From a virus (taxonomy: Duplodnaviria; Heunggongvirae; Uroviricota; Caudoviricetes), in the IMG/VR virus record IMGVR_UViG_2690316243_000011: a stretch of DNA of 8,759 nt, one strand, 5' to 3'. The notes under the pieces are model-generated. The model searched no databases, had not been told where the DNA came from, and saw nothing but the letters and a program-made list of their open reading frames with translations. The number at the start of each line of letters is the position of its first letter. Position 1 is the stretch's first letter. Made by a program: the position numbers and the translations under genes. Of the stretch, positions 1-8,759 are shown piece after piece.

Positions 1-31
1 TGGTAGTGTCCGCTATTGCCAGTACACCTCA
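1..31. repeat. Left arm of a perfect 31-bp terminal inverted repeat (partner 8729-8759)
   Basis: tggtagtgtccgctattgccagtacacctca at 1-31 is the exact reverse complement of 8729-8759; identity ends at base 32 (g versus t). Checked base by base. Confidence 0.95.
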
Positions 32-579
32 GTGCCCTGGGTGAATGCCGAACCACCACGACAGCATGGTACCAGCAGGATCCCCGCATTATTAGGGATA
101 TACGGAAGCAGTTTTTTGGCAATATGTAAGCCCTGTCCGACACAGCCGTACTGCCCTTTGCTCAGGTCAGCCCGGGGATGGTTAATCGTACTCATATCCT
201 GAACATCATGCAGACAATGGTCAGCAGGAATGATGTCGTTAAATACGCATACTTCACCACCGGGAGTCACTGTGTTACGACGGGCCAGTTGCTTAATGCG
301 CGGATGGGGCGCATCGTATGAATCCGGAAGCGGAAGACCTTCACCGTAAGCCATGGCATTGGATTGCCCGGCCAGTACGATGACGTAGTACCACTCCGGC
401 TCAGTTGCACCACTGACGACCACATCACCTTCTGCTGCAATCGCCTGCATCAGGGTATAAGGGGTTATGGCCACCGGACTACCAAACGGCTGCCAGCCCT
501 CCTTCAGTTTTTGTGTCAGTCGTTTCGCAAGGTCTGACGGCGATGCCGCCCTGACCACGTCATAGTGTTTAAATGCCAT
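13..579 (-). CDS. NanS-p-like sialate O-acetylesterase, N-terminal 188 aa only; apparently truncated by a TAG stop at 13-15
   Basis: ATG at 579-577 preceded by GGGAGGA. The translation contains the esterase block-I motif VLAGQSNAMAYGEG (GQSN with the serine nucleophile), but the later catalytic blocks are absent because the frame ends ...TEVYWQ-TAG inside the terminal inverted repeat. Prophage NanS-p proteins are several hundred aa (from memory). Confidence 0.65.
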   Translation of the reverse strand: MAFKHYDVVRAASPSDLAKRLTQKLKEGWQPFGSPVAITPYTLMQAIAAEGDVVVSGATEPEWYYVIVLAGQSNAMAYGEGLPLPDSYDAPHPRIKQLARRNTVTPGGEVCVFNDIIPADHCLHDVQDMSTINHPRADLSKGQYGCVGQGLHIAKKLLPYIPNNAGILLVPCCRGGSAFTQGTEVYWQ

Positions 580-772
580 GAATCCTCCCGGCCGGGATAA
601 TATTGTGAGTAAAATAAGGAGCGGGCTGAAGTCCGGAAGTTACAGGACAATGGCAGAAGAGAGACGACAGCCCGCAATTCGAAAAAGACCGCGCAGTTGC
701 GCAGAGTGATTACTATGGGGTATTATTCGCCAGCTGAAATATTACTTCACGTTTTATTGTTTATTCCTTGCC

Positions 773-801
773 GCCCGCGTCTCCCAGCGCGGGCTTTTTT
801 T
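773..801 (+). terminator. Intrinsic terminator-like hairpin plus T7 tract on the plus strand
   Basis: gcccgcg (773-779) pairs with cgcgggc (788-794) as a 7-bp GC stem with an 8-nt loop, followed by ttttttt (795-801). On the minus strand the same hairpin is followed by ggcaagg, so it is not a minus-strand terminator. Confidence 0.5.
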
Positions 802-804
802 GCC

Positions 805-1105
805 CACAAGAAAACCCCTCCGGAGAGGGGCTAAAGCCGCGTATCTGTATCATCATGCACATGGTGCCGGGTGCCTCCCGGTGAGTTCAGCCCGGTGCCA
901 CTAAACCCGCGTCATTCTCGTTTTGATAATCAGAGATTATACCGTCACCAGTCGCCCCTCCGCTCAGGGGGATTCACCATGCGAAATTTTTTTAACAAAT
1001 GCCCAGTCTGACAGGCAACTGTCAACTTACTGAATTGTGAGCAACATAGCATTTAACGGGGAACCTGTTTTCTGCAGTAAAAAGGCCCACCGGAGCGGAT
1101 GGGCC
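805..1105 (-). repeat. Copy L of a diverged structured non-coding module (hairpin-rich, bounded by terminator-like hairpins)
   Basis: Aligns with 1293-1540 at roughly 65-70 percent identity (by eye). Shared blocks include cccctccggagaggg, tgccgggtgcctcccggtga, gcccctccgc-N-cagggggattcaccatgc, ttttaacaaa, caactgtcaac, ctgaattgtgag and aaaaaggccc. No conserved ORF. Confidence 0.6.
808..830 (-). terminator. Terminator-like hairpin at the 3' end of module L (minus strand)
   Basis: Minus-strand RNA reads cccctc-tccg-gagggg (6-bp GC stem, 4-nt loop) followed by UUUUCUUG. Confidence 0.5.
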
Positions 1106-1292
1106 TGGAAGGATAGCGGTCATGTGATGCCGGTTTCCCGGTAACTCAGCACCGGTATCTGAGTCAACGTTTTCTCTACTGGGTCATTTCCGATACGCCC
1201 TGCCTGCTGACAGGCTTTCATCACATCTGAAAATATAGCACCCTGACTGATACTGTAGTACCTAAGGTTCCAGAAACTGTGATGTATCCGGC

Positions 1293-1540
1293 ACAGAAAA
1301 GCCCCTCCGGAGAGGGCTGGAGAGTGGCGCTATGTGCCATTGCATGATGCCGGGTGCCTCCCGGTGAATTCAGTACCAGCACCTGAATCCGCGATTATCC
1401 CATATACCTACTCGCTGATTGCCCCTCCGCACAGGGGGATTCACCATGCCAGTTTCTTTTAACAAACTCCCCGCAAAACAGACAACTGTCAACCGTCTGA
1501 ATTGTGAGACATTTAAAAAAAAGGCCCGCAAAAGCGAGCC
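1293..1540 (-). repeat. Copy U of the same structured non-coding module, directly downstream of tRNA-Arg(UCU)
   Basis: Same conserved blocks and hairpins as 805-1105. Its 3' end has a weaker terminator-like hairpin (ccctc-cgga-gaggg, 1303-1316) followed on the minus strand by GCUUUUCUG. Confidence 0.6.
1514..1540 (-). terminator. Intrinsic terminator immediately downstream of the tRNA cluster
   Basis: Minus-strand RNA: ggcucgc-uuuu-gcgggcc (7-bp stem with one G-U pair) followed by UUUUUUUUU (plus-strand A-run 1514-1522); lies 15-40 nt past the tRNA 3' end. Confidence 0.65.
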
Positions 1541-1554
1541 AGGGAAAATAAGTG

Positions 1555-1631
1555 TGGCGCGTTGTACTGGATTCGAACCAGTGACCGATTGCTTAGAAGG
1601 CAATTGCTCTGTCCGGCTGAGCTAACAACGC
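1555..1631 (-). tRNA. argO: tRNA-Arg (anticodon UCU), copy A, 77 nt, CCA encoded
   Basis: Reverse complement folds as a cloverleaf: acceptor GCGTTGT/ACAACGC, D-stem GCTC/GAGC, anticodon stem ATTGC/GCAAT with loop CTTCTAA, T-stem ACTGG/CCAGT with loop TTCGAAT, discriminator G, CCA. Symbol assigned only by analogy with the ileZ-argN-argO cluster of Stx phages (from memory). Confidence 0.85.
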
Positions 1632-1641
1632 TGAATACCGA

Positions 1642-1662
1642 NNNNNNNNNNNNNNNNNNNNN
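1642..1662. other. Assembly gap (21 N)
   Basis: Run of n at 1642-1662; the flanking sequences on the two sides differ, so the true distance and linkage are unknown. Confidence 0.95.
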
Positions 1663-1706
1663 TTTCAGTATAAGGCTCTGCCGGAAGGAATCTGGAAGAA
1701 TGAATA

Positions 1707-1783
1707 TGGCGCGCTGTACTGGATTCGAACCAGTGACCGATTGCTTAGAAGGCAATTGCTCTGTCCGGCTGAGCTAACAACGC
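1707..1783 (-). tRNA. argO: tRNA-Arg (anticodon UCU), copy B, 77 nt, CCA encoded
   Basis: Identical to copy A except one base in the 3' acceptor strand (ACAGCGC versus ACAACGC), which gives a G-U pair. Its upstream flank differs from that of copy A. Confidence 0.85.
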
Positions 1784-1796
1784 ATGATGCAGATAA

Positions 1797-1873
1797 TGGA
1801 CCGCCATCGGGGACTTGAACCCCGCGCAGCCAGCTTCGAAGGCTGGCGCTCTTTCCTGATGAGCTAATGGCGG
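1797..1873 (-). tRNA. argN: tRNA-Arg (anticodon UCG), 77 nt, CCA encoded
   Basis: Cloverleaf: acceptor CCGCCAT/ATGGCGG, D-stem GCTC/GAGC, anticodon stem CCAGC/GCTGG with loop CTTCGAA, T-stem CGGGG/CCCCG with loop TTCAAGT, discriminator T, CCA. The 5' base is C, which is unusual but paired. Confidence 0.8.
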
Positions 1874-1880
1874 TATGTGA

Positions 1881-1956
1881 TGGTGGCCCTTGCTGGATTT
1901 GAACCAGCGACCTGGCGATTATGAGTCGCTCGCTCTCACCACTGAGCTAAAGGGCC
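1881..1956 (-). tRNA. ileZ: tRNA with CAU anticodon, Ile2 (lysidine)-type by similarity to E. coli ileX; a tRNA scanner would probably call it Met
   Basis: GGCCCTTTAGCTCAGTGGTGAGAGCGAGCGACTCATAATCGCCAGGTCGCTGGTTCAAATCCAGCAAGGGCCACCA: anticodon loop CTCATAA, T-loop TTCAAAT, CCA encoded. It resembles the tRNA-Ile2 sequence as I remember it. Confidence 0.85.
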
Positions 1957-1965
1957 GGGAGCCGC

Positions 1966-1994
1966 ATAATAACGACGCGTAATTAATTCTTCAA
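1966..1994 (-). promoter_or_regulatory. Candidate sigma70 promoter for the tRNA cluster
   Basis: Minus strand: TTGAAG (1994-1989), 17-bp spacer, TATTAT (1971-1966); the predicted start falls 1-3 nt before the mature 5' end of the first tRNA. The -35 sits just past the methyltransferase stop codon. Pattern match only. Confidence 0.4.
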
Positions 1995-1996
1995 TA

Positions 1997-3055
1997 TCAT
2001 CCGTTCTGGCTGACTAAATCCTGTACTTCCCGAACCGTCTGCTCAAAACGTTCAGTCTCCAGCTCAACGCCAATTGCACGACGCCCGAGCGCCAGTGCCG
2101 CTTTCACTGTCGAACCCAACCCCATGAAAAAATCTGCAATCAGGTCACCCGGACGACTGCTAGCGCTGATTATCTGCTGCAGCATTTCTGCCGGTTTTTC
2201 GCACGGATGTTTCCCGGGATAGAACTGCACCGGTTTATGCGTCCACACATCGGTATACGGCACCTGCACCGTCACGCCAAAATACCGCCGCAGATGTTTA
2301 TATTCACTCAGCAGCTCCGCATACTGCCGGTTCAGTGAGGTATACGTATCCACCAGCTGGTGGTGGAGCTTTTCCAGTTCACCACGCCGATGCTTCTCTT
2401 CTGCCACCCGGGCAAACAGCGCCTGTAATTTCAGATAATCGCTTTCATTCGGCAACTGCCACTGACCGGCACTGAACCAGTGCGACACCATGTTTTTCTT
2501 TCCTGTGGCATCTGCAATCTGTTTTGCCGTTATCCCCAGGGCAGCTCGCGCATCACGAAAGTAAGAAATCAGCGGGGCCATCACATGCTGTTTCAGTGCA
2601 CTGCCCTTCGCCGCATACCCGGCATCTTTCGGACGATACGGCCCCTGATAATGTTCCGCGAACAGAATGCGCTCTGTGGCGGGGAAATACGCCCGCAGGC
2701 TTTCCTTGTTGCATCCGTTCCAGCGTCCGGACGGCTTCGCCCAGATAATATGGTTCAGCACACTGAAGCGTTCACGCATCATGATTTCGATATCAGATGC
2801 CAGGCGATGACCACAGAACAGGTAAAGACTTCCGGCAGGTTTCAGCACCCGCCAGAACTGCGCCAGACACTGGTCCAGCCACTTCAGGTAATCATCGTCG
2901 CCCTTCCACTGGTTATCCCAGCCCTCAGGCTTCACTTTAAAGTACGGCGGGGCCGTGACTATCAGGTCAACAGAATTTTCGGGTAACGACCGGATAAATT
3001 CCAGGCAGTCGGCGTTGATTAACTCACAACTGGATATTTTTACAGTATTAAGCAT
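1997..3055 (-). CDS. DNA methyltransferase, beta-class N6-adenine/N4-cytosine family; orphan, no restriction endonuclease partner
   Basis: 352 aa. Motif IV-like DLIVTAPPYF near the N-terminus and motif I-like DFFMGLGST near the C-terminus, in the beta-class order. Motif IV reads APPY rather than the canonical D/N/S-PPY (confirmed on the DNA: acg gcc ccg ccg tac). Confidence 0.85.
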   Translation of the reverse strand: MLNTVKISSCELINADCLEFIRSLPENSVDLIVTAPPYFKVKPEGWDNQWKGDDDYLKWLDQCLAQFWRVLKPAGSLYLFCGHRLASDIEIMMRERFSVLNHIIWAKPSGRWNGCNKESLRAYFPATERILFAEHYQGPYRPKDAGYAAKGSALKQHVMAPLISYFRDARAALGITAKQIADATGKKNMVSHWFSAGQWQLPNESDYLKLQALFARVAEEKHRRGELEKLHHQLVDTYTSLNRQYAELLSEYKHLRRYFGVTVQVPYTDVWTHKPVQFYPGKHPCEKPAEMLQQIISASSRPGDLIADFFMGLGSTVKAALALGRRAIGVELETERFEQTVREVQDLVSQNG

Positions 3056-3147
3056 GGATCATTAAGCCTGTCTCTGATAGGCTCATTCTGCTTTTGCGCA
3101 AAGCAGTGGGCCTGAGGTTTGCTTGTGAACCCAACGCATGAGCAGAT

Positions 3148-3178
3148 GGCTGGTGGGTGCCCCTAACACCCACCAGCC
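3148..3178. other. Perfect 12-bp stem-loop between the small wHTH ORF and the methyltransferase start
   Basis: ggctggtgggtg (3148-3159), loop cccctaa, cacccaccagcc (3167-3178). No U-tract on either strand, so it is not a canonical intrinsic terminator. Confidence 0.7.
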
Positions 3179-3194
3179 GCCCATTTACCACAAA

Positions 3195-3219
3195 TAAAAA
3201 AGCCTTCACTGCGGAAGGC
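3195..3219 (-). terminator. Intrinsic terminator overlapping the stop of the 65-aa ORF
   Basis: Minus-strand RNA: gccuuc-cgcagu-gaaggc (6-bp stem) followed by UUUUUUAUUU (plus-strand A-run 3195-3201). Confidence 0.6.
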
Positions 3220-3403
3220 GTCTGTAACAACCGAACTGATAGTCTGCCAGACCCGCCATAACCAGCTGGGTCAGTATTAACTGGCAGCGTTCGCGTGAAA
3301 GGTAAGTATTCTGCGCTATCTCCCCGACTGTCGCCGGTTCGGTAACGCTTAATTCATTAAACACCACTCTGGCGGTTTCTGTCATATCCTGCTGTTTTAG
3401 CAT
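3206..3403 (-). CDS. Small hypothetical protein (65 aa) with a winged-helix/HTH-like segment; possible DNA-binding regulator
   Basis: ATG at 3403 with upstream AAGGAAAAG. The segment TVGEIAQNTYLSRERCQLILTQLVMAGLADY fits a helix-turn-helix pattern. It has its own terminator and lies just upstream of the methyltransferase. Confidence 0.5.
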   Translation of the reverse strand: MLKQQDMTETARVVFNELSVTEPATVGEIAQNTYLSRERCQLILTQLVMAGLADYQFGCYRRLPQ

Positions 3404-3521
3404 GTCTTTTCCTTTTCCGGTTAACGTGACACACCAATAACTCTTGTCGAAAAAGCCAGCAAGCTGAAAGACAGGTATTCACCGCCACCAGCGCGTTTAC
3501 TGTACTGACGCGATTTCAGTC

Positions 3522-3547
3522 ATAAAAAACCCGCTCGGCGGCGGGTT
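3522..3547 (-). terminator. Intrinsic terminator about 40-65 nt downstream of the Q stop codon
   Basis: Minus-strand RNA: aacccgc-cgccga-gcggguu followed by UUUUUUAUG. Confidence 0.6.
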
Positions 3548-3586
3548 GTAGAAACTCTTCTAACGTCAGGCATAAAACGCCCATCG

Positions 3587-4441
3587 TTATGACGAATTTA
3601 CCACAGATTCCGGAAAAATCAACCTAGTTACCTTTTTTAACTGCCGCTCAGCCCATGCTTCTTCAATATCAAACCGGGTCACCAGCGCATCATAAAATTT
3701 CTTAACTGTTTTTTCCCATGACGCGCGTGTTATCTGGTTTGTCACCTCGCATATAGCATTAAATGCCTCCGTTGATGGTAGTCTTTCATAGCCACGACCA
3801 CCACAACGCTGGCAGTCTCTGATAACAGGCATACCACGTTTTACCGACTCTTCACGATGAATGGCGACACCACGCCCACGGCAATCCTTACAGGCGGTGG
3901 AAACCTCACCCTTTCCGCCACACTCCGGACAGGCAACTTTTACCACCTCTCTGACTTTTTTCCATTCTTCCCAGTAAGACGGATACACACCTTTCGTACA
4001 CTTTGCCCATACCGGCGGCTTACCATCCGGATACTGGATCTTGTTTGTAAAAACCTCGCTTTCAATAAATTTTTTTCCGTGACAGCAGGGGCACTGTTTT
4101 TTGCTCGCCGCGCTACGGGCATAATCTTCAAACGCATACGAAGCCATAATACGCATCACTGCCGGTTTTATTTCTGCCGGGAGTTTTCTTAACGCCGCCA
4201 CGCGATCACACCGACTGAGTGCATATTCTGTCAGCAATTCTGTTGCCCGCTCTCTGTCATTCATACTAATGCCCATTTTCCCAAGGAACGCAGAAACCCC
4301 CATCTCAGCCCGATTCTGTGTCATGCCCTGCGCGGCCATCACATCAGTGATACTCAGCGCATCTTTCGACGTTGAGGCCGATGCATCAGTCAGGCCGGGG
4401 GATTTTGGGGAGTAGTATTTCGGTAAATCTTCCAGTTTCAT
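3587..4441 (-). CDS. Q: Late-gene antiterminator Q, Q82/QuuQ-type, with CxxCxGxG zinc-finger repeats; complete copy
   Basis: 284 aa. Motifs CPCC, CPECGGKG, CKDCRGRG and CQRCGGRGYERLPS, with a C-terminal segment WEKTVKKFYDAL resembling phage 82 Q / QuuQ as I recall them. Its ATG overlaps the stop of the upstream rusA fragment (ATGA). Position downstream of rusA is as expected for Q. Confidence 0.7.
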   Translation of the reverse strand: MKLEDLPKYYSPKSPGLTDASASTSKDALSITDVMAAQGMTQNRAEMGVSAFLGKMGISMNDRERATELLTEYALSRCDRVAALRKLPAEIKPAVMRIMASYAFEDYARSAASKKQCPCCHGKKFIESEVFTNKIQYPDGKPPVWAKCTKGVYPSYWEEWKKVREVVKVACPECGGKGEVSTACKDCRGRGVAIHREESVKRGMPVIRDCQRCGGRGYERLPSTEAFNAICEVTNQITRASWEKTVKKFYDALVTRFDIEEAWAERQLKKVTRLIFPESVVNSS

Positions 4442-4551
4442 TTTTTGACCTGCCCTTCAAGCATTATGGGATAAATCTTCACCCCCAGACGTCCACCAGA
4501 TACTGGCTGAGCACGAACGATATTGATTTCATCAAACTGCTCATCGTCCAT
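4438..4551 (-). pseudogene. Duplicated 3' fragment of rusA (37 codons)
   Basis: Translates MDDEQFDEINIVRAQPVSGGRLGVKIYPIMLEGQVKK, matching the C-terminus of the full RusA ORF with a few substitutions. It begins at the duplication junction and ends in an ATGA overlap with Q copy 1. Confidence 0.6.
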
Positions 4552-5300
4552 TANAATTTCTTAACTGTTTTTTCCCATGACGCGCGTGTTATCTGGTTTG
4601 TCACCTCGCATATAGCATTAAATGCCTCCGTTGATGGTAGTCTTTCATAGCCACGACCACCACAACGCTGGCAGTCTCTGATAACAGGCATACCACGTTT
4701 TACCGACTCTTCACGATGAATGGCGACACCACGCCCACGGCAATCCTTACAGGCGGTGGAAACCTCACCCTTTCCGCCACACTCCGGACAGGCAACTTTT
4801 ACCACCTCTCTGACTTTTTTCCATTCTTCCCAGTAAGACGGATACACACCTTTCGTACACTTTGCCCATACCGGCGGCTTACCATCCGGATACTGGACCT
4901 TGTTTGTAAAAACTACGCTTTCAATAAATTTTTCCCCATAGCAACAAGGGCACTGCTTTTTACTCGCTGCGCTGCGGGCATAATCCTCAAAAGCGTACGA
5001 AGCCATAATGCGCATCACTACCGGTTTTATTTCTGCCGGAAGTTTTCTCAACGCCGCCACACGATCGCACCGACTGAGTGCATAATCTGCCAGTAATTCT
5101 GTTGCCCGCGCCCTGTCATTCATACTGATGCCCATTTTCCCCAGGAACGCAGAAAACCCCATCTCAGCCCGATTCTGTGTCATGCCCTGCGCGGCCATCA
5201 CATCAGTGATACTCAGCGCATCTTTCGACGTTGAGGCCGATGCATCAGTCAGGCCGGGGGATTTTGGGGAGTAGTATTTCGGTAAATCTTCCAGTTTCAT
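4551..5300 (-). CDS. Q: Second copy of antiterminator Q, C-terminally truncated at the duplication junction (249 aa, last codon contains the N)
   Basis: ATG at 5300 overlaps the RusA stop (ATGA). The protein is co-linear with Q copy 1 up to ...WEKTVKK, then a TTN codon and TAA. It lacks the last ~35 residues of copy 1. Confidence 0.5.
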   Translation of the reverse strand: MKLEDLPKYYSPKSPGLTDASASTSKDALSITDVMAAQGMTQNRAEMGFSAFLGKMGISMNDRARATELLADYALSRCDRVAALRKLPAEIKPVVMRIMASYAFEDYARSAASKKQCPCCYGEKFIESVVFTNKVQYPDGKPPVWAKCTKGVYPSYWEEWKKVREVVKVACPECGGKGEVSTACKDCRGRGVAIHREESVKRGMPVIRDCQRCGGRGYERLPSTEAFNAICEVTNQITRASWEKTVKKX

Positions 5301-5677
5301 TTTTTGACCTGCTCTTCATGCATTATGGGGTAAATCTTCACCCCCAGACGTCCACCAGATACTGGCTGACCACGAACGATATTGATTTCATCAAACTGCT
5401 CATCGTCCATTAGCAACCCCGCATGCGTCAGCGCATCCAGCGGCGCTTTCAGAATATTGTCCAGGTCACGACGGCGCTTATCCGGTGGCTCTGCAATAAT
5501 CTTTATCGCCAGTCTTCCGGACAGGCTTAATTTCAGCCGCTGCTGGCGAACAATAAGCGCCACTGCCCGGCGATAACGCTCCCCGGCTTTTGATACAAAA
5601 TATGTGCTGCCACGACGACGCCAGTAAGTGTTCACCGTCGGCGGGTAAGGTAAAACAAATTCTATGCGCTCGGTCAT
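5297..5677 (-). CDS. rusA: RusA-family Holliday-junction resolvase (endodeoxyribonuclease RusA)
   Basis: 126 aa with PDKRRRDLDNILKAPLDALTHAGLLMDDEQ, matching the conserved DRRRRDLDN acidic motif region of RusA. Its start follows the upstream stop directly (TAAATG) and its stop overlaps the Q start. Confidence 0.8.
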   Translation of the reverse strand: MTERIEFVLPYPPTVNTYWRRRGSTYFVSKAGERYRRAVALIVRQQRLKLSLSGRLAIKIIAEPPDKRRRDLDNILKAPLDALTHAGLLMDDEQFDEINIVRGQPVSGGRLGVKIYPIMHEEQVKK

Positions 5678-6736
5678 TTATGCTTTCCACTTCAGAACAC
5701 CCGAATTTCTCGCGTGCATTAAAAAACGAATCAGCAACAACAGCTGACTGCCGTGTTTCTCTTCAAAATCTTTTACTCCGGCATGTAGTTCGTTACGGCA
5801 TTTACGGCATAACGGAATAACAAACAAATCATCAGCCTTTGTTCCCATCCCTCCCAGTCCATGACCAATGATGTGATGCGGATCATCTGCCTGATTGCCA
5901 CACGTCATGCATTTCTGCGTTTTTACCCAGCGCGTGTATACAGGCATCTCTTCCCGTTGTGATTTCTGGCGCTGGAGATACTGAGCCGGTGACTCCGGAT
6001 CAACGGCAATGCTGACCACCGTCTTTTCCTGTGGTGGGTTCTGTTGCTGGTGGACGTGAGGCAGTAACGCAATATTTTTTGTGCGCTGCTTCAGTATGCT
6101 GGTGGCTGTCTGCTCTCCCGGTATGATGTCGCTTTCACTGTACACAGAGCGAATTTTTTCCGCACGCAACCCCAGCGAACGACGTAATACCGCTTCCGGT
6201 AGCGCGTCCGCCACCTGATTGCGGACCGCCCACCAGGATAATTCAGCCAGAGATAATTCACGCTCCTGCGTACCGCTTATTGCGTGACCGATGACGTCAA
6301 TCATCCATGCTGACAGGTTTTGATGAGCAAGTTGCTCGAGTGATTCGGATGTCTGGTCACGCAGCTGGTTGTCGCAGTGCCAGCACAACACCATTGCGCC
6401 GGTACCATAACGGTGAATGACGGTTTCGCTGTGATGATAATCGCCGTGTGGCCACTGGCAGGATTTAATATGGCGCAACAGCCAGTCAGACAATGCACCA
6501 GCACCACCAGCAGCACGAATCACCCGTGCGTTACTGAAAAACGGCAGCAATGTTTTGTCTTCCACCAGCGGCTGGCGAGCGGCAGGAACGACCCCGGACG
6601 GCAGATTACGCATGCTTTTTGGTTCCGGCTCCACCAGTATTCTGCCGTTATGGAATGCTGACATTGATTCACGGCCTGGCTTAACGATAACCAGACCGAG
6701 TTCCGGTACCAGAACAGGTCGAAGTAATACCCGCAC
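5678..6736 (-). CDS. DUF968 / YdfU-like prophage protein with two Cys/His HNH-like motifs
   Basis: 352 aa in the frame from a GTG at 6736 (alternative ATG at 6664 would give 328 aa). Motifs CQWPHGDYHH...CWHCDNQ and CMTCGNQADDPHHIIGH...CRKCRNELH. Sits between rem-like and rusA as ydfU does in Qin (from memory). Confidence 0.6.
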   Translation of the reverse strand: MRVLLRPVLVPELGLVIVKPGRESMSAFHNGRILVEPEPKSMRNLPSGVVPAARQPLVEDKTLLPFFSNARVIRAAGGAGALSDWLLRHIKSCQWPHGDYHHSETVIHRYGTGAMVLCWHCDNQLRDQTSESLEQLAHQNLSAWMIDVIGHAISGTQERELSLAELSWWAVRNQVADALPEAVLRRSLGLRAEKIRSVYSESDIIPGEQTATSILKQRTKNIALLPHVHQQQNPPQEKTVVSIAVDPESPAQYLQRQKSQREEMPVYTRWVKTQKCMTCGNQADDPHHIIGHGLGGMGTKADDLFVIPLCRKCRNELHAGVKDFEEKHGSQLLLLIRFLMHARNSGVLKWKA

Positions 6737-6737
6737 A

Positions 6738-7016
6738 TTACCTCCAGATCCGTTGCTGGAATGTGCGGGACGGACGCGTTGGCCGTTCGGAGTAAGGGAG
6801 CCTGACGGAGATTATCCAGTGACGGTAGTCGAGGCTAAGGGCTTTTTTAACCTCGCATCCGCGCCTGCGGTAACACTGAATGAGCCATTCGGCCTGTTCT
6901 TCAGTGCATGGGGGATGCTGGTACCAATCAGATTTAAATGCGTGAGAGCGCCGCCCGTGCCTGCTGGCAAAGACGGCTGAATTATCAGAATTGTGTAGTC
7001 TGGAATTTTGCGCCAT
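6738..7016 (-). CDS. Hypothetical protein (92 aa)
   Basis: ATG at 7016 preceded by GGAG with 6-nt spacing; its stop overlaps the start region of the DUF968 gene. No family recognised. Confidence 0.45.
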   Translation of the reverse strand: MAQNSRLHNSDNSAVFASRHGRRSHAFKSDWYQHPPCTEEQAEWLIQCYRRRGCEVKKALSLDYRHWIISVRLPYSERPTRPSRTFQQRIWR

Positions 7017-7082
7017 CGGCTTTCTCCGGTGGCACAGTGTTACTCAACAGGGGTTCAGCCCTGCGCTGAATTGTAGATGAAT

Positions 7083-7346
7083 TCACTCATCTTCAAAAGC
7101 AGAAAAACCAGCCTTAATCCCAGCTTCTTTCAGAGACGGCAACGATGTGACAAATTCATTTGCACGCGAAATAAAACCATCCGTCACAAGCCCATCCACA
7201 AAATGAATTAACGCAGCTCCACTCTTCCTTTGTTGAGACTGTAAACATTTAATACGGCAGTGGCTGACAATAGCGCCATTCTCAACGCGCACAGTATAGA
7301 GGCCATCTTCACTAAAAATTTCACGTAATTCTTCGATTTTCATCAA
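7083..7346 (-). CDS. Small hypothetical protein (87 aa), Rem-like by position downstream of hok
   Basis: ATG at 7346 preceded by GGAAGGA. The Rem assignment rests only on gene order and size, not on a recognised sequence. Confidence 0.55.
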   Translation of the reverse strand: MMKIEELREIFSEDGLYTVRVENGAIVSHCRIKCLQSQQRKSGAALIHFVDGLVTDGFISRANEFVTSLPSLKEAGIKAGFSAFEDE

Positions 7347-7460
7347 CAGAATCCTTCCAGATAAATAGCACTCCCCTGTTCGGGGTCCATCCCTCTTCTC
7401 CCTGCGCGCTACTTAAGTATTTTTGATTCTATTCCGGCACCATCTAAAACTTCAAACGCG

Positions 7461-7495
7461 TTGAAAATAAAAACAAAAACCCGCCGAAGCGGGTT
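7461..7495 (-). terminator. Strong intrinsic terminator downstream of hok
   Basis: Minus-strand RNA: aacccgc-uucg-gcggguu (7-bp stem) followed by UUUGUUUUUAUUUUC. Confidence 0.75.
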
Positions 7496-7563
7496 AAGTG
7501 TGGGTGCATTGAGGATGCCTGACCCATCAGAGGTGGCGAGGGATTTCTCCCCCGCCTGGTCTC

Positions 7564-7719
7564 TTACTCCTCAGGTTCGTAAGCTGTGAAGACAGCGACC
7601 TCCGTCTGGCCGGTTCGAATTCGTACCTCGCAGAGGTCTTTCCTCGTTACCAGTGCCGTCACTATGACGGTTAAACAGATGACGATCAGGGCGATTAACA
7701 TCGCCTTTTGCTGCTTCAT
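7564..7719 (-). CDS. hokD: Hok-family membrane toxin (type I toxin), HokD/RelF-like
   Basis: Translation MKQQKAMLIALIVICLTVIVTALVTRKDLCEVRIRTGQTEVAVFTAYEPEE (51 aa) matches HokD/RelF as I remember it and is clearly Hok/Gef family. An in-frame upstream ATG at 7776 would add 19 residues (the 70-aa ORF in the track); I prefer the internal start. Confidence 0.85.
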   Translation of the reverse strand: MKQQKAMLIALIVICLTVIVTALVTRKDLCEVRIRTGQTEVAVFTAYEPEE

Positions 7720-8010
7720 AGCCTGCTTCTCCTTGCCTTTCGGCACGTAAGAGGCTAACCTAGATTTGCCGTTCATAGATTGAGCCTCAGATTAATGTTA
7801 AGCGTCTTGCCGGACGCGTAATGTTAACTGGGGCTTTTCTCTATCTGCCTTTTGGTGTTCATGCCTGAGACAGATAGCCTCAAGCACCCGCTGCAATTCT
7901 ACTTAACTCTCCTTTTCCCGCAAACCGTTTTTATCCCCAGCGGCAAATCGAATACACCACCAGCGCCACCGCCATCGCAATTCCTACCGTTGTTAATGCT
8001 TCAGGCCAGG

Positions 8011-8355
8011 TCATCGTAAAATATCCTCCACGCTTATCAGTCCGTTCCGCTCCAGATAACTCATCGCCTTATCCGGTAATTTGCAGTCTGGCTTCGCTTT
8101 CCTCAGTTGCCAGGTTAACTGCTTTACCAGCATGGTTAACTCATCGACCAGACGCTGATATCCCACTGGTTTGTATTCATGCAATTTACCGGCTGGCTCT
8201 GCTGCCAGCGATACCAGTGCGATTTCCAGAACAGCAATATCCATCTTATATGTGCGGATGATGTCATGGTCGATTGTGCCCGGTATGCACAGTCTCTGTG
8301 CTTCAATAGTCTCCTCTGCGTGAGCTATTAACTGCTCTCTGGTAAAAGTCGTCAT
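8011..8355 (-). CDS. Hypothetical protein (114 aa), paralogous in its N-terminal half to the upstream 55-aa ORF
   Basis: ATG at 8355 overlaps the stop of the upstream ORF (ATGA). Shares the N-terminus MTTFTREQL and the motif [17 protein letters not shown] with the 55-aa protein ([24 protein letters not shown]). Confidence 0.55.
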
Positions 8356-8519
8356 GCCGTAGCCCCTTCTTGATATTTTTCAAACCAGAACACAACCGGC
8401 TCTGCTTCCAGCGATGCCAGCGCAATCCGTGCCAGTTCCATTTGTTCACCACGGGTAAGCCCGTTTTCAAGCGGGTTTTTAATGAACAATTCAATACGTT
8501 CTTTGGTAATAGTGGTCAT
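8352..8519 (-). CDS. Small hypothetical protein (55 aa); not in the supplied ORF track, found by hand
   Basis: ATG at 8519-8517 preceded by GGAG with 7-nt spacing. Translation [55 protein letters not shown]; TGA stop at 8354-8352 overlaps the next ATG. Confidence 0.5.
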
Positions 8520-8529
8520 GTGTTACTCC

Positions 8530-8754
8530 TTAACCCGCAGTGCTTTCAACTGATGAGGGGAACAAAATCTTTTCATCAAACCCTGCATTCATATCATGAA
8601 CAGCAACACACCAATCCATCGACGAACGATTATCAAGAGCCTCCATGATTTCATCCATGCGGCGTAGGTCATACAGGTAAATGCTTTTATCGCCAATGGT
8701 GTAAAAGCCAATTTTTTTCGGTGATGGATGAGGTGTACTGGCAATAGCGGACAC
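8530..8754 (-). CDS. C-terminal part of a hypothetical protein; 5' end outside the window or disrupted by the terminal repeat
   Basis: Open frame from the window edge to a stop at 8530-8532. The 'M' in the track is a GTG inside the terminal inverted repeat, so the true start is probably upstream of the window. No family recognised. Confidence 0.35.
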   Translation of the reverse strand: MSAIASTPHPSPKKIGFYTIGDKSIYLYDLRRMDEIMEALDNRSSMDWCVAVHDMNAGFDEKILFPSSVESTAG

Positions 8755-8759
8755 TACCA
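8729..8759. repeat. Right arm of the 31-bp terminal inverted repeat (partner 1-31)
   Basis: Reverse complement of 8729-8759 equals 1-31 exactly. Confidence 0.95.

Follow-up and report, generated by a model that had tools for sequence, protein, structure and literature searches.

Right-end sequences of IS600 very probably account for the 31-bp terminal inverted repeat of a lambdoid prophage contig

The stretch of DNA analysed here (the window, 8759 nt in total) is a segment of a lambdoid prophage. It shows about 95% identity to a prophage of E. coli 042, with which it is for the most part collinear, and carries small early-region ORFs, a hok/sok type I toxin-antitoxin system, a DUF968 gene, rusA, the gene for the Q antiterminator, a DNA methyltransferase gene, a cluster of four tRNA genes and the 5' part of an esterase gene, in this order (Table 1). 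The homology to E. coli 042 ends at a junction on either side. A spacer of 975 nt separates the esterase gene from the tRNA cluster and harbors two copies of the STnc100 sRNA, which correspond to the direct repeats D3, D4, and D6. Stx phages carry the stx genes at this position; no stx genes were found in the window.

Table 1. Features of the window and their coordinates.
Feature	Position	Strand	Remarks
IS600 terminus (IRR, ...ACACCTCA-3')	1..31	+	IS body to the left, off the contig; exact matches
Truncated prophage sialate-esterase-like gene (SASA family, NanS-p type)	13..579	-	agrees with the intact protein (617 aa) over residues 1-184
First 3 bp of target DNA beside the left IS600 end (GTG)	32..34		presumed target-site duplication in the case of simple insertion
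Two copies of STnc100 sRNA	802..1011 and 1289..1478	-	Rfam RF02076, 161 and 124 bits
21-N scaffold gap	1642..1662		between two tRNA-Arg(tct) copies, 1555-1631 and 1707-1783
Single-N scaffold join	4554..4554		between overlapping versions of the Q antiterminator gene and the rusA 3' end, 3696-4553 and 4555-5412
hok/sok type I toxin-antitoxin	7564..7889	-	Hok/Gef-family ORF of 51 aa (70-aa ORF 7564..7776 in the same frame)
sok antitoxin RNA	7714..7889	-	RF01794, 112 bits
Small prophage ORF, residues 23-87 (3' part)	8530..8728	-	87 aa in E. coli 042
Second IS600 terminus (IRR), inverted	8729..8759	-	IS body to the right, off the contig; reverse complement of 1-31

The two runs of N identify the window as a scaffold of three short-read pieces. 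At the 21-N gap the neighboring pieces overlap (1511–1641 versus 1663–1793). The overlap covers tRNA-Arg(tct), and the spacers around the two copies of this gene differ. A single copy is present in E. coli 042 and also in the two relatives used for comparison throughout, the closed chromosome CP104423.1 (L006) and a 4.98-Mb contig (L007), which are collinear with the window and 98%–100% identical to it. At the single N, the two overlapping versions are identical over exactly 343 nt and then about 93% identical. As a consequence, the window appears to have tandem Q genes at 3587–4441 (284 aa) and 4551–5300 (249 aa, cut at the 3' end), with 112 nt of the rusA 3' end and the N between them. The stretches 13093–13953 of L006 and 13349–14210 of L007 each match the window twice, and both relatives have one Q gene. 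Judged from these alignments, the duplication of Q most likely represents a scaffold join of overlapping alleles, one of them possibly from another prophage, and the duplication of tRNA-Arg(tct) is probably a scaffold artefact of the same kind. These two false tandem duplications should not be taken for biology. Since the joined pieces overlap as diverged versions, the linkage of the two window ends rests mainly on the collinearity with L006 and L007, according to which both ends are likely parts of one prophage. The real distance from end to end would be about 7.7 kb (a piece of 7.7–8.7 kb). A further difference concerns about 250 bp at window 7006–7255 (corresponding to L005 1505–1754), which include most of an 86-aa ORF of the 'Rem' family. 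This stretch is present in the window and in L007 and is missing from L006, and we regard it as a small indel, as read from the alignments, between prophages that are otherwise 98%–100% identical.

Bases 1–31 of the window (TGGTAGTGTCCGCTATTGCCAGTACACCTCA) are the exact reverse complement of bases 8729–8759 (31 of 31 positions, 100%), as seen by reading the ends and by a scan for repeats. A direct comparison of the window to its own reverse complement gave a perfect run of 31 nt that failed at base 32, which confirmed the inverted repeat reported in the preliminary description. Within the window the 31-mer occurs once per strand, and the probability for a perfect match of 31 nt to occur by chance exactly at both termini is about 4^-31. 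An exact look-up of the 188-aa product encoded at the left end identified the window as positions 1–8759 of the 8759 nt of CXCY01000159.1 (assembly GCA_001258795.1). The window, for which this question had been raised before, is therefore a whole contig, and the arms of the repeat lie exactly at its termini. Both arms interrupt reading frames in the way that had been described: the NanS-p-like esterase frame on the left is cut to 188 aa and ends with TAG at 13–15, and the ORF on the right, 8530..8754 on the minus strand, starts inside the repeat with GTG and its frame stays open up to the contig end.

The 31-mer was identified as a part of IS600, an element of the IS3 family with a length of 1263–1264 bp, whose right end (IRR) terminates in exactly these 31 nt. 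Of 5426 complete E. coli genomes, 2666 contain exact matches, 4993 in total and no more than 43 in a single genome. The matches are located on chromosomes and on plasmids, mostly under no annotated feature. At two places that were inspected, the 31-mer lies 12 nt downstream of the stop codon of a CDS annotated as 'IS3-like element IS600 family transposase'. For the IS600 copies of E. coli, the PGAP annotation includes a programmed frameshift. Two independent copies matched over exactly 1264 bp with 3 mismatches and were unrelated outside of this stretch, so that the element extends from TGAGGTAGCC... to ...ACACCTCA. Given in full, its ends are 5'-TGAGGTAGCCTGAGTTTAACGGACACT... and ...GGTAGTGTCCGCTATTGCCAGTACACCTCA-3', with the 31-mer outermost at the right end. 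We compared 46 unique contexts of the 31-mer, drawn from two IS600-rich genomes: the 60 nt upstream were conserved to 80%–100%, the 20 nt downstream to 26%–46%. This drop in conservation places the boundary of the element at the last base of the 31-mer (...CA-3'). When one genome per species was scanned, the 31-mer was found almost only in a Shigella flexneri and in a 4.44-Mb E. coli, both rich in IS600. Further matches to the 31-mer lie on contigs that are very short or of low coverage and are labelled as Streptomyces sp., Bacteroidetes MAG, and Proteobacteria MAG (L039, L042, and L055); these matches look like contamination or binning errors and not like true hosts.

The left end of IS600 (IRL) agrees with the reverse complement of IRR only in the first six bases, and a stub of IRL reads as the reverse complement of TGAGGTAGCCTGAG.... 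Because of this difference both stubs of the window can be assigned to IRR, and the presence of IRR at both ends implies two IS600 copies in opposite orientation. An origin of the 31-mer from the flanking genes themselves was rejected: the E. coli 042 sequence that it replaces matches at 12 of 31 positions on the left and at 7 of 31 positions on the right.

The length of 31 nt comes from the assembly. Three other short-read contigs start with exactly the same 31 nt of IS600 at the right junction, namely L009 (CXAM01000145.1), L010 (CXCP01000164.1), and L014, and the accessions of L009 and L010 are of the same style as that of the window. Four sequences (L008 and L011–L013) kept 256–341 nt of IS600 at the right junction, and closed genomes kept the whole element. 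The stub is thus the edge of a longer multicopy repeat, which is present as full IS600 in closed relatives and in dozens of copies in genomes of the Shigella type. The k of the assembler would have been about 31–33; a stub of exactly 31 nt does not give a single value for k, with many IS copies sharing flanking bases. The internal scaffold joins were uninformative for k, with exact-match runs of 42 and 343 nt at the ends of the pieces. IS600 is among the five insertion sequences that are expanded in all Shigella species, and the Shigella reference chromosomes contain 229–348 IS insertions. IS sites are difficult to recover from short reads, and the mean read length in one large Shigella collection was 59 bp (PMC7373316).

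The two earlier proposals for the origin of the repeat, a k-mer artefact at the contig ends or at a collapsed inverted repeat on the one hand and a real breakpoint in the esterase gene on the other, were each correct in part. The window is indeed a whole contig and the length of 31 nt is due to assembly, but both genes are interrupted at junctions that exist in real DNA, as described below. The true repeat would be about 1.26 kb long, collapsed and cut off by the assembler; its identity as IS600 had been missed.

At the right junction, IS600 removes the first 22 codons of the 87-aa ORF, and the alignment with E. coli 042 ends at 8728. The ORF of 74 aa that is left at this place received its GTG and 8 further codons from IS600. 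Among public contigs, 19 encode exactly this fusion product, and seven of these exceed 1 Mb. The right junction was absent from the complete E. coli genomes searched and was recovered only by use of the exact sequence of the fusion protein (74 aa). A full IS600 of 1263 bp, from IRL to IRR, is located exactly at the right junction in L006 and L007. It has TG...CA termini, imperfect terminal repeats, and a product with HTH_Tnp_1, HTH_21, and rve (DDE) domains. Since the same junction lies beside a full IS600 in closed sequence, it is real, and the number of contigs shows that it is widespread.

At the left junction, the first 184 residues of the 188-aa product are identical to those of the SASA-family esterase of E. 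coli 042 (617 aa), after which the frame reads VYWQ and stops. Codon 183 of the esterase gene spans the junction and the match of residue 184 (E) is coincidental; residues 185–188 (VYWQ) and the TAG are contributed by IS600. DUF1737 was the only domain detected on the 188-aa product. Intact relatives have DUF1737, SASA, and DUF6645, and the latter two are lost. The left junction had no match in the complete E. coli genomes searched, and the 32-nt pattern of this junction was absent from the GTDB species representatives. The exact 188-aa product is encoded on one public contig only, that of the window, and the left junction is known from one assembly.

The alignment of E. coli 042 to the left end reaches base 27 solely owing to the likeness of the target sequence CCTCC to the IS end CCTCA (window 27–31 versus L001 3001–3005). 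The intact site in E. coli 042 reads CCTCC GTG CCCTGG. Another allele of the esterase gene (L004, about 2995–3025) shows a longer partial likeness to the IS600 end, AGTGTCCGC...CCTCA. The likeness of the target to the end of the element could be due to chance (12 of 31 positions, ungapped) or to a preference of the IS for end-like targets. Some database matches had to be discarded as esterase genes that carry the repeat: H57 and H58 (query 5–140, 90%) show a coincidental partial resemblance within an uninterrupted, frameshifted, esterase-like gene, and H56 (query 1–140) is not a single match and consists of two separate pieces that were joined by the search tool.

The esterase gene and IS600 share only four bases (CCTC) at the left junction. 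A false join in the assembly graph through a shared (k-1)-mer is therefore impossible, and the k-mers of the junction must derive from reads that spanned real DNA. Close relatives, which are 99.5%–100% identical, have an intact esterase gene for 617 aa in the same place, so that a single recent insertion is the simplest explanation. From this comparison of sequences, the left junction most likely marks a recent insertion of IS600 that is specific for the isolate. We infer that the event was a simple insertion. In this case the GTG at 32–34 would represent a presumed 3-bp target-site duplication with its partner on another contig, and the remainder of the esterase gene is expected to be joined at the duplicated GTG (...CCCCTCCGTG). 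A real breakpoint of inversion or recombination inside the esterase gene had been named before as the alternative to an artefact. The junction is indeed real, and its cause is IS600, most simply by insertion.

We consider it very probable that the terminal inverted repeat consists of two IRR stubs of IS600 at the ends of a short-read contig, and that they stem from two oppositely oriented copies which interrupt a lambdoid prophage. The piece of prophage would be bounded by IS600 on each side, with the copies in opposite orientation and each IRR facing the piece. A de Bruijn-graph assembler would collapse the multicopy IS600 into one repeat node, and the unique contig would end about one k-mer (31 nt) inside of IS600. 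Since both neighbors show the same end of the IS, the stubs are perfect reverse complements of each other and identity is lost where the unique DNA starts. The window contains 31 nt of each copy, and we infer that a complete IS600 follows beyond each end in this isolate.

The same topology exists in finished sequence, as seen from pairs of inverted IS600 copies that face inward with their IRR in the relatives. In L006, L008, and L011 the second copy is 6365 bp away from the right junction and lies between the tRNA cluster and the esterase gene (at about 1110–1114 of the window). In L006 it is flanked by a clean 3-bp target duplication (TCC), as expected for a plain insertion. Independently, L007 has its second IS600 at a distance of 10.08 kb, after the holin and DUF1327 genes. 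The esterase gene of both L006 and L007 is intact (617 aa). The two IS600 copies of L006 (8764–10026 and 16392–17654) are both 1263 bp long and differ from each other at 2 positions. Compared to the 1264-bp copy of E. coli, both lack one base at position 316 of the element, in the orfA/orfB region.

A different origin of the left end would be a rearrangement mediated by IS600, such as an inversion or deletion between copies or an intramolecular transposition, which would have moved the remainder of the esterase gene elsewhere. The right junction gives this idea some weight. The IS600 of L006 at this place has no target-site duplication (its flanks are ATTTT and TCCATC), and the missing first 22 codons together with DUF4014 are found 3 kb away in inverted orientation (L006 6958–7241, corresponding to 12430–12713 of the E. 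coli 042 sequence). Both breakpoints of L006 contain the triplet GGA/TCC. We looked for an IS600 end beside the displaced N-terminal fragment (L006 6958) and found none. The displaced, inverted fragment and the absent duplication indicate that a rearrangement associated with IS600 did occur in this prophage in the past, which from the sequence is likely for L006. The other IS600 of L006, on the other hand, is the plain insertion with TCC duplication mentioned above, and the intact esterase gene in nearly identical relatives is most simply reconciled with a single recent insertion. The window itself holds nothing that would tell insertion from rearrangement at its left end. On balance we regard a rearrangement at the left end as unlikely and keep to simple insertion.

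The position of the copies allows a further speculation. On the late-gene side of Q, IS600 is present in three lineages: in the window it interrupts the esterase gene, in L006 it lies between this gene and the tRNA cluster, and in L007 it follows the holin and DUF1327 genes. The three copies share one orientation, with the IRR towards Q, an agreement that has a chance of about 1 in 4. This might reflect repeated selection for IS600 copies that uncouple the Q-dependent late transcription from the lysis genes and thus ground the prophage, or else an invertible segment bounded by IS600. We consider either of these improbable.

A pair of inverted IS600 copies together with the DNA between them could also be imagined as a functional composite transposon or as an invertible segment. 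Inverted copies flank a segment not only in the window but also in L006 and L007, and homologous recombination between inverted repeats of 1.26 kb can flip the intervening DNA. The segment, however, is in the native order of a prophage, collinear with E. coli 042 and L007, and does not lie in a foreign context. The far IS copy is found at three different sites in the three lineages, which argues for independent insertions and not for one unit. Furthermore, both inward ends are IRR, and transposition in the IS3 family normally pairs one IRL with one IRR. This renders a functional unit of this kind very unlikely.

Also very unlikely is an origin of the repeat from the assembly process only, with the IS missing from both ends, for example by a hairpin, a chimeric join, or a palindromic path in the graph. 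The location of the repeat exactly at the contig termini and its length, typical for a k-mer, would fit such an origin, and the scaffold does contain other artefactual duplications. Against this, the 31-mer matches the terminus of IS600 exactly, closed genomes contain the right junction as well, and the esterase gene and IS600 have nothing but CCTC in common at the left junction. The view that the window of 8.7 kb is a discrete mobile element with terminal inverted repeats of 31 bp of its own can practically be dismissed in spite of the perfect repeats, because these are ends of IS600 that in closed genomes continue into the full IS, because they interrupt two genes which relatives have in intact form, and because no transposase is encoded in the window.

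We conclude that the repeat very probably marks two copies of IS600 and neither a new mobile element nor a palindromic artefact. The host lineage is probably of the Shigella type, to judge from richness in IS600 and IS1, from chromosomes of 4.8–5.0 Mb in the closest relatives and from the fact that these relatives are missing from the RefSeq set of complete E. coli genomes. For the prophage, the left junction adds one more gene inactivation by IS600, which affected a sialate-esterase-like gene in a single isolate from an Escherichia/Shigella lineage rich in IS elements. This fits the known IS-driven decay of prophages in such genomes (PMC7373316). For draft assemblies in general, the case calls for caution: if a perfect terminal inverted repeat with the length of a k-mer is seen on a contig, the ends of insertion sequences should be checked first.

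Both parts of this explanation, the IS600 element and the contig breaks at collapsed repeats, are already known biology plus a routine effect of assembly. The degraded, IS-bounded Shiga-toxin prophage of Shigella dysenteriae type 1 is likewise a defective lambdoid prophage with its late regulatory region cut by IS elements (see PMC7819885). The window differs from it in that it lacks stx and that its 975-nt spacer between tRNA and esterase genes holds two STnc100-like sRNA copies. IS600, which belongs to the IS3 family and is expanded in Shigella and enteroinvasive E. coli, has the same outer 31 nt at its right end as the stubs of the window. Compared to the known element, the window holds only these stubs and adds nothing new on IS600 as such. 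None of the other public sequences searched has IS600 at this position of the esterase gene. Finally, de Bruijn-graph assemblies break at collapsed repeats in such a way that the neighboring paths overlap by about k nt, and the window likewise stops 31 nt inside of a multicopy repeat. It differs from such a break by its perfect terminal inverted repeat, which arises only since both neighbors show the same end of the IS.
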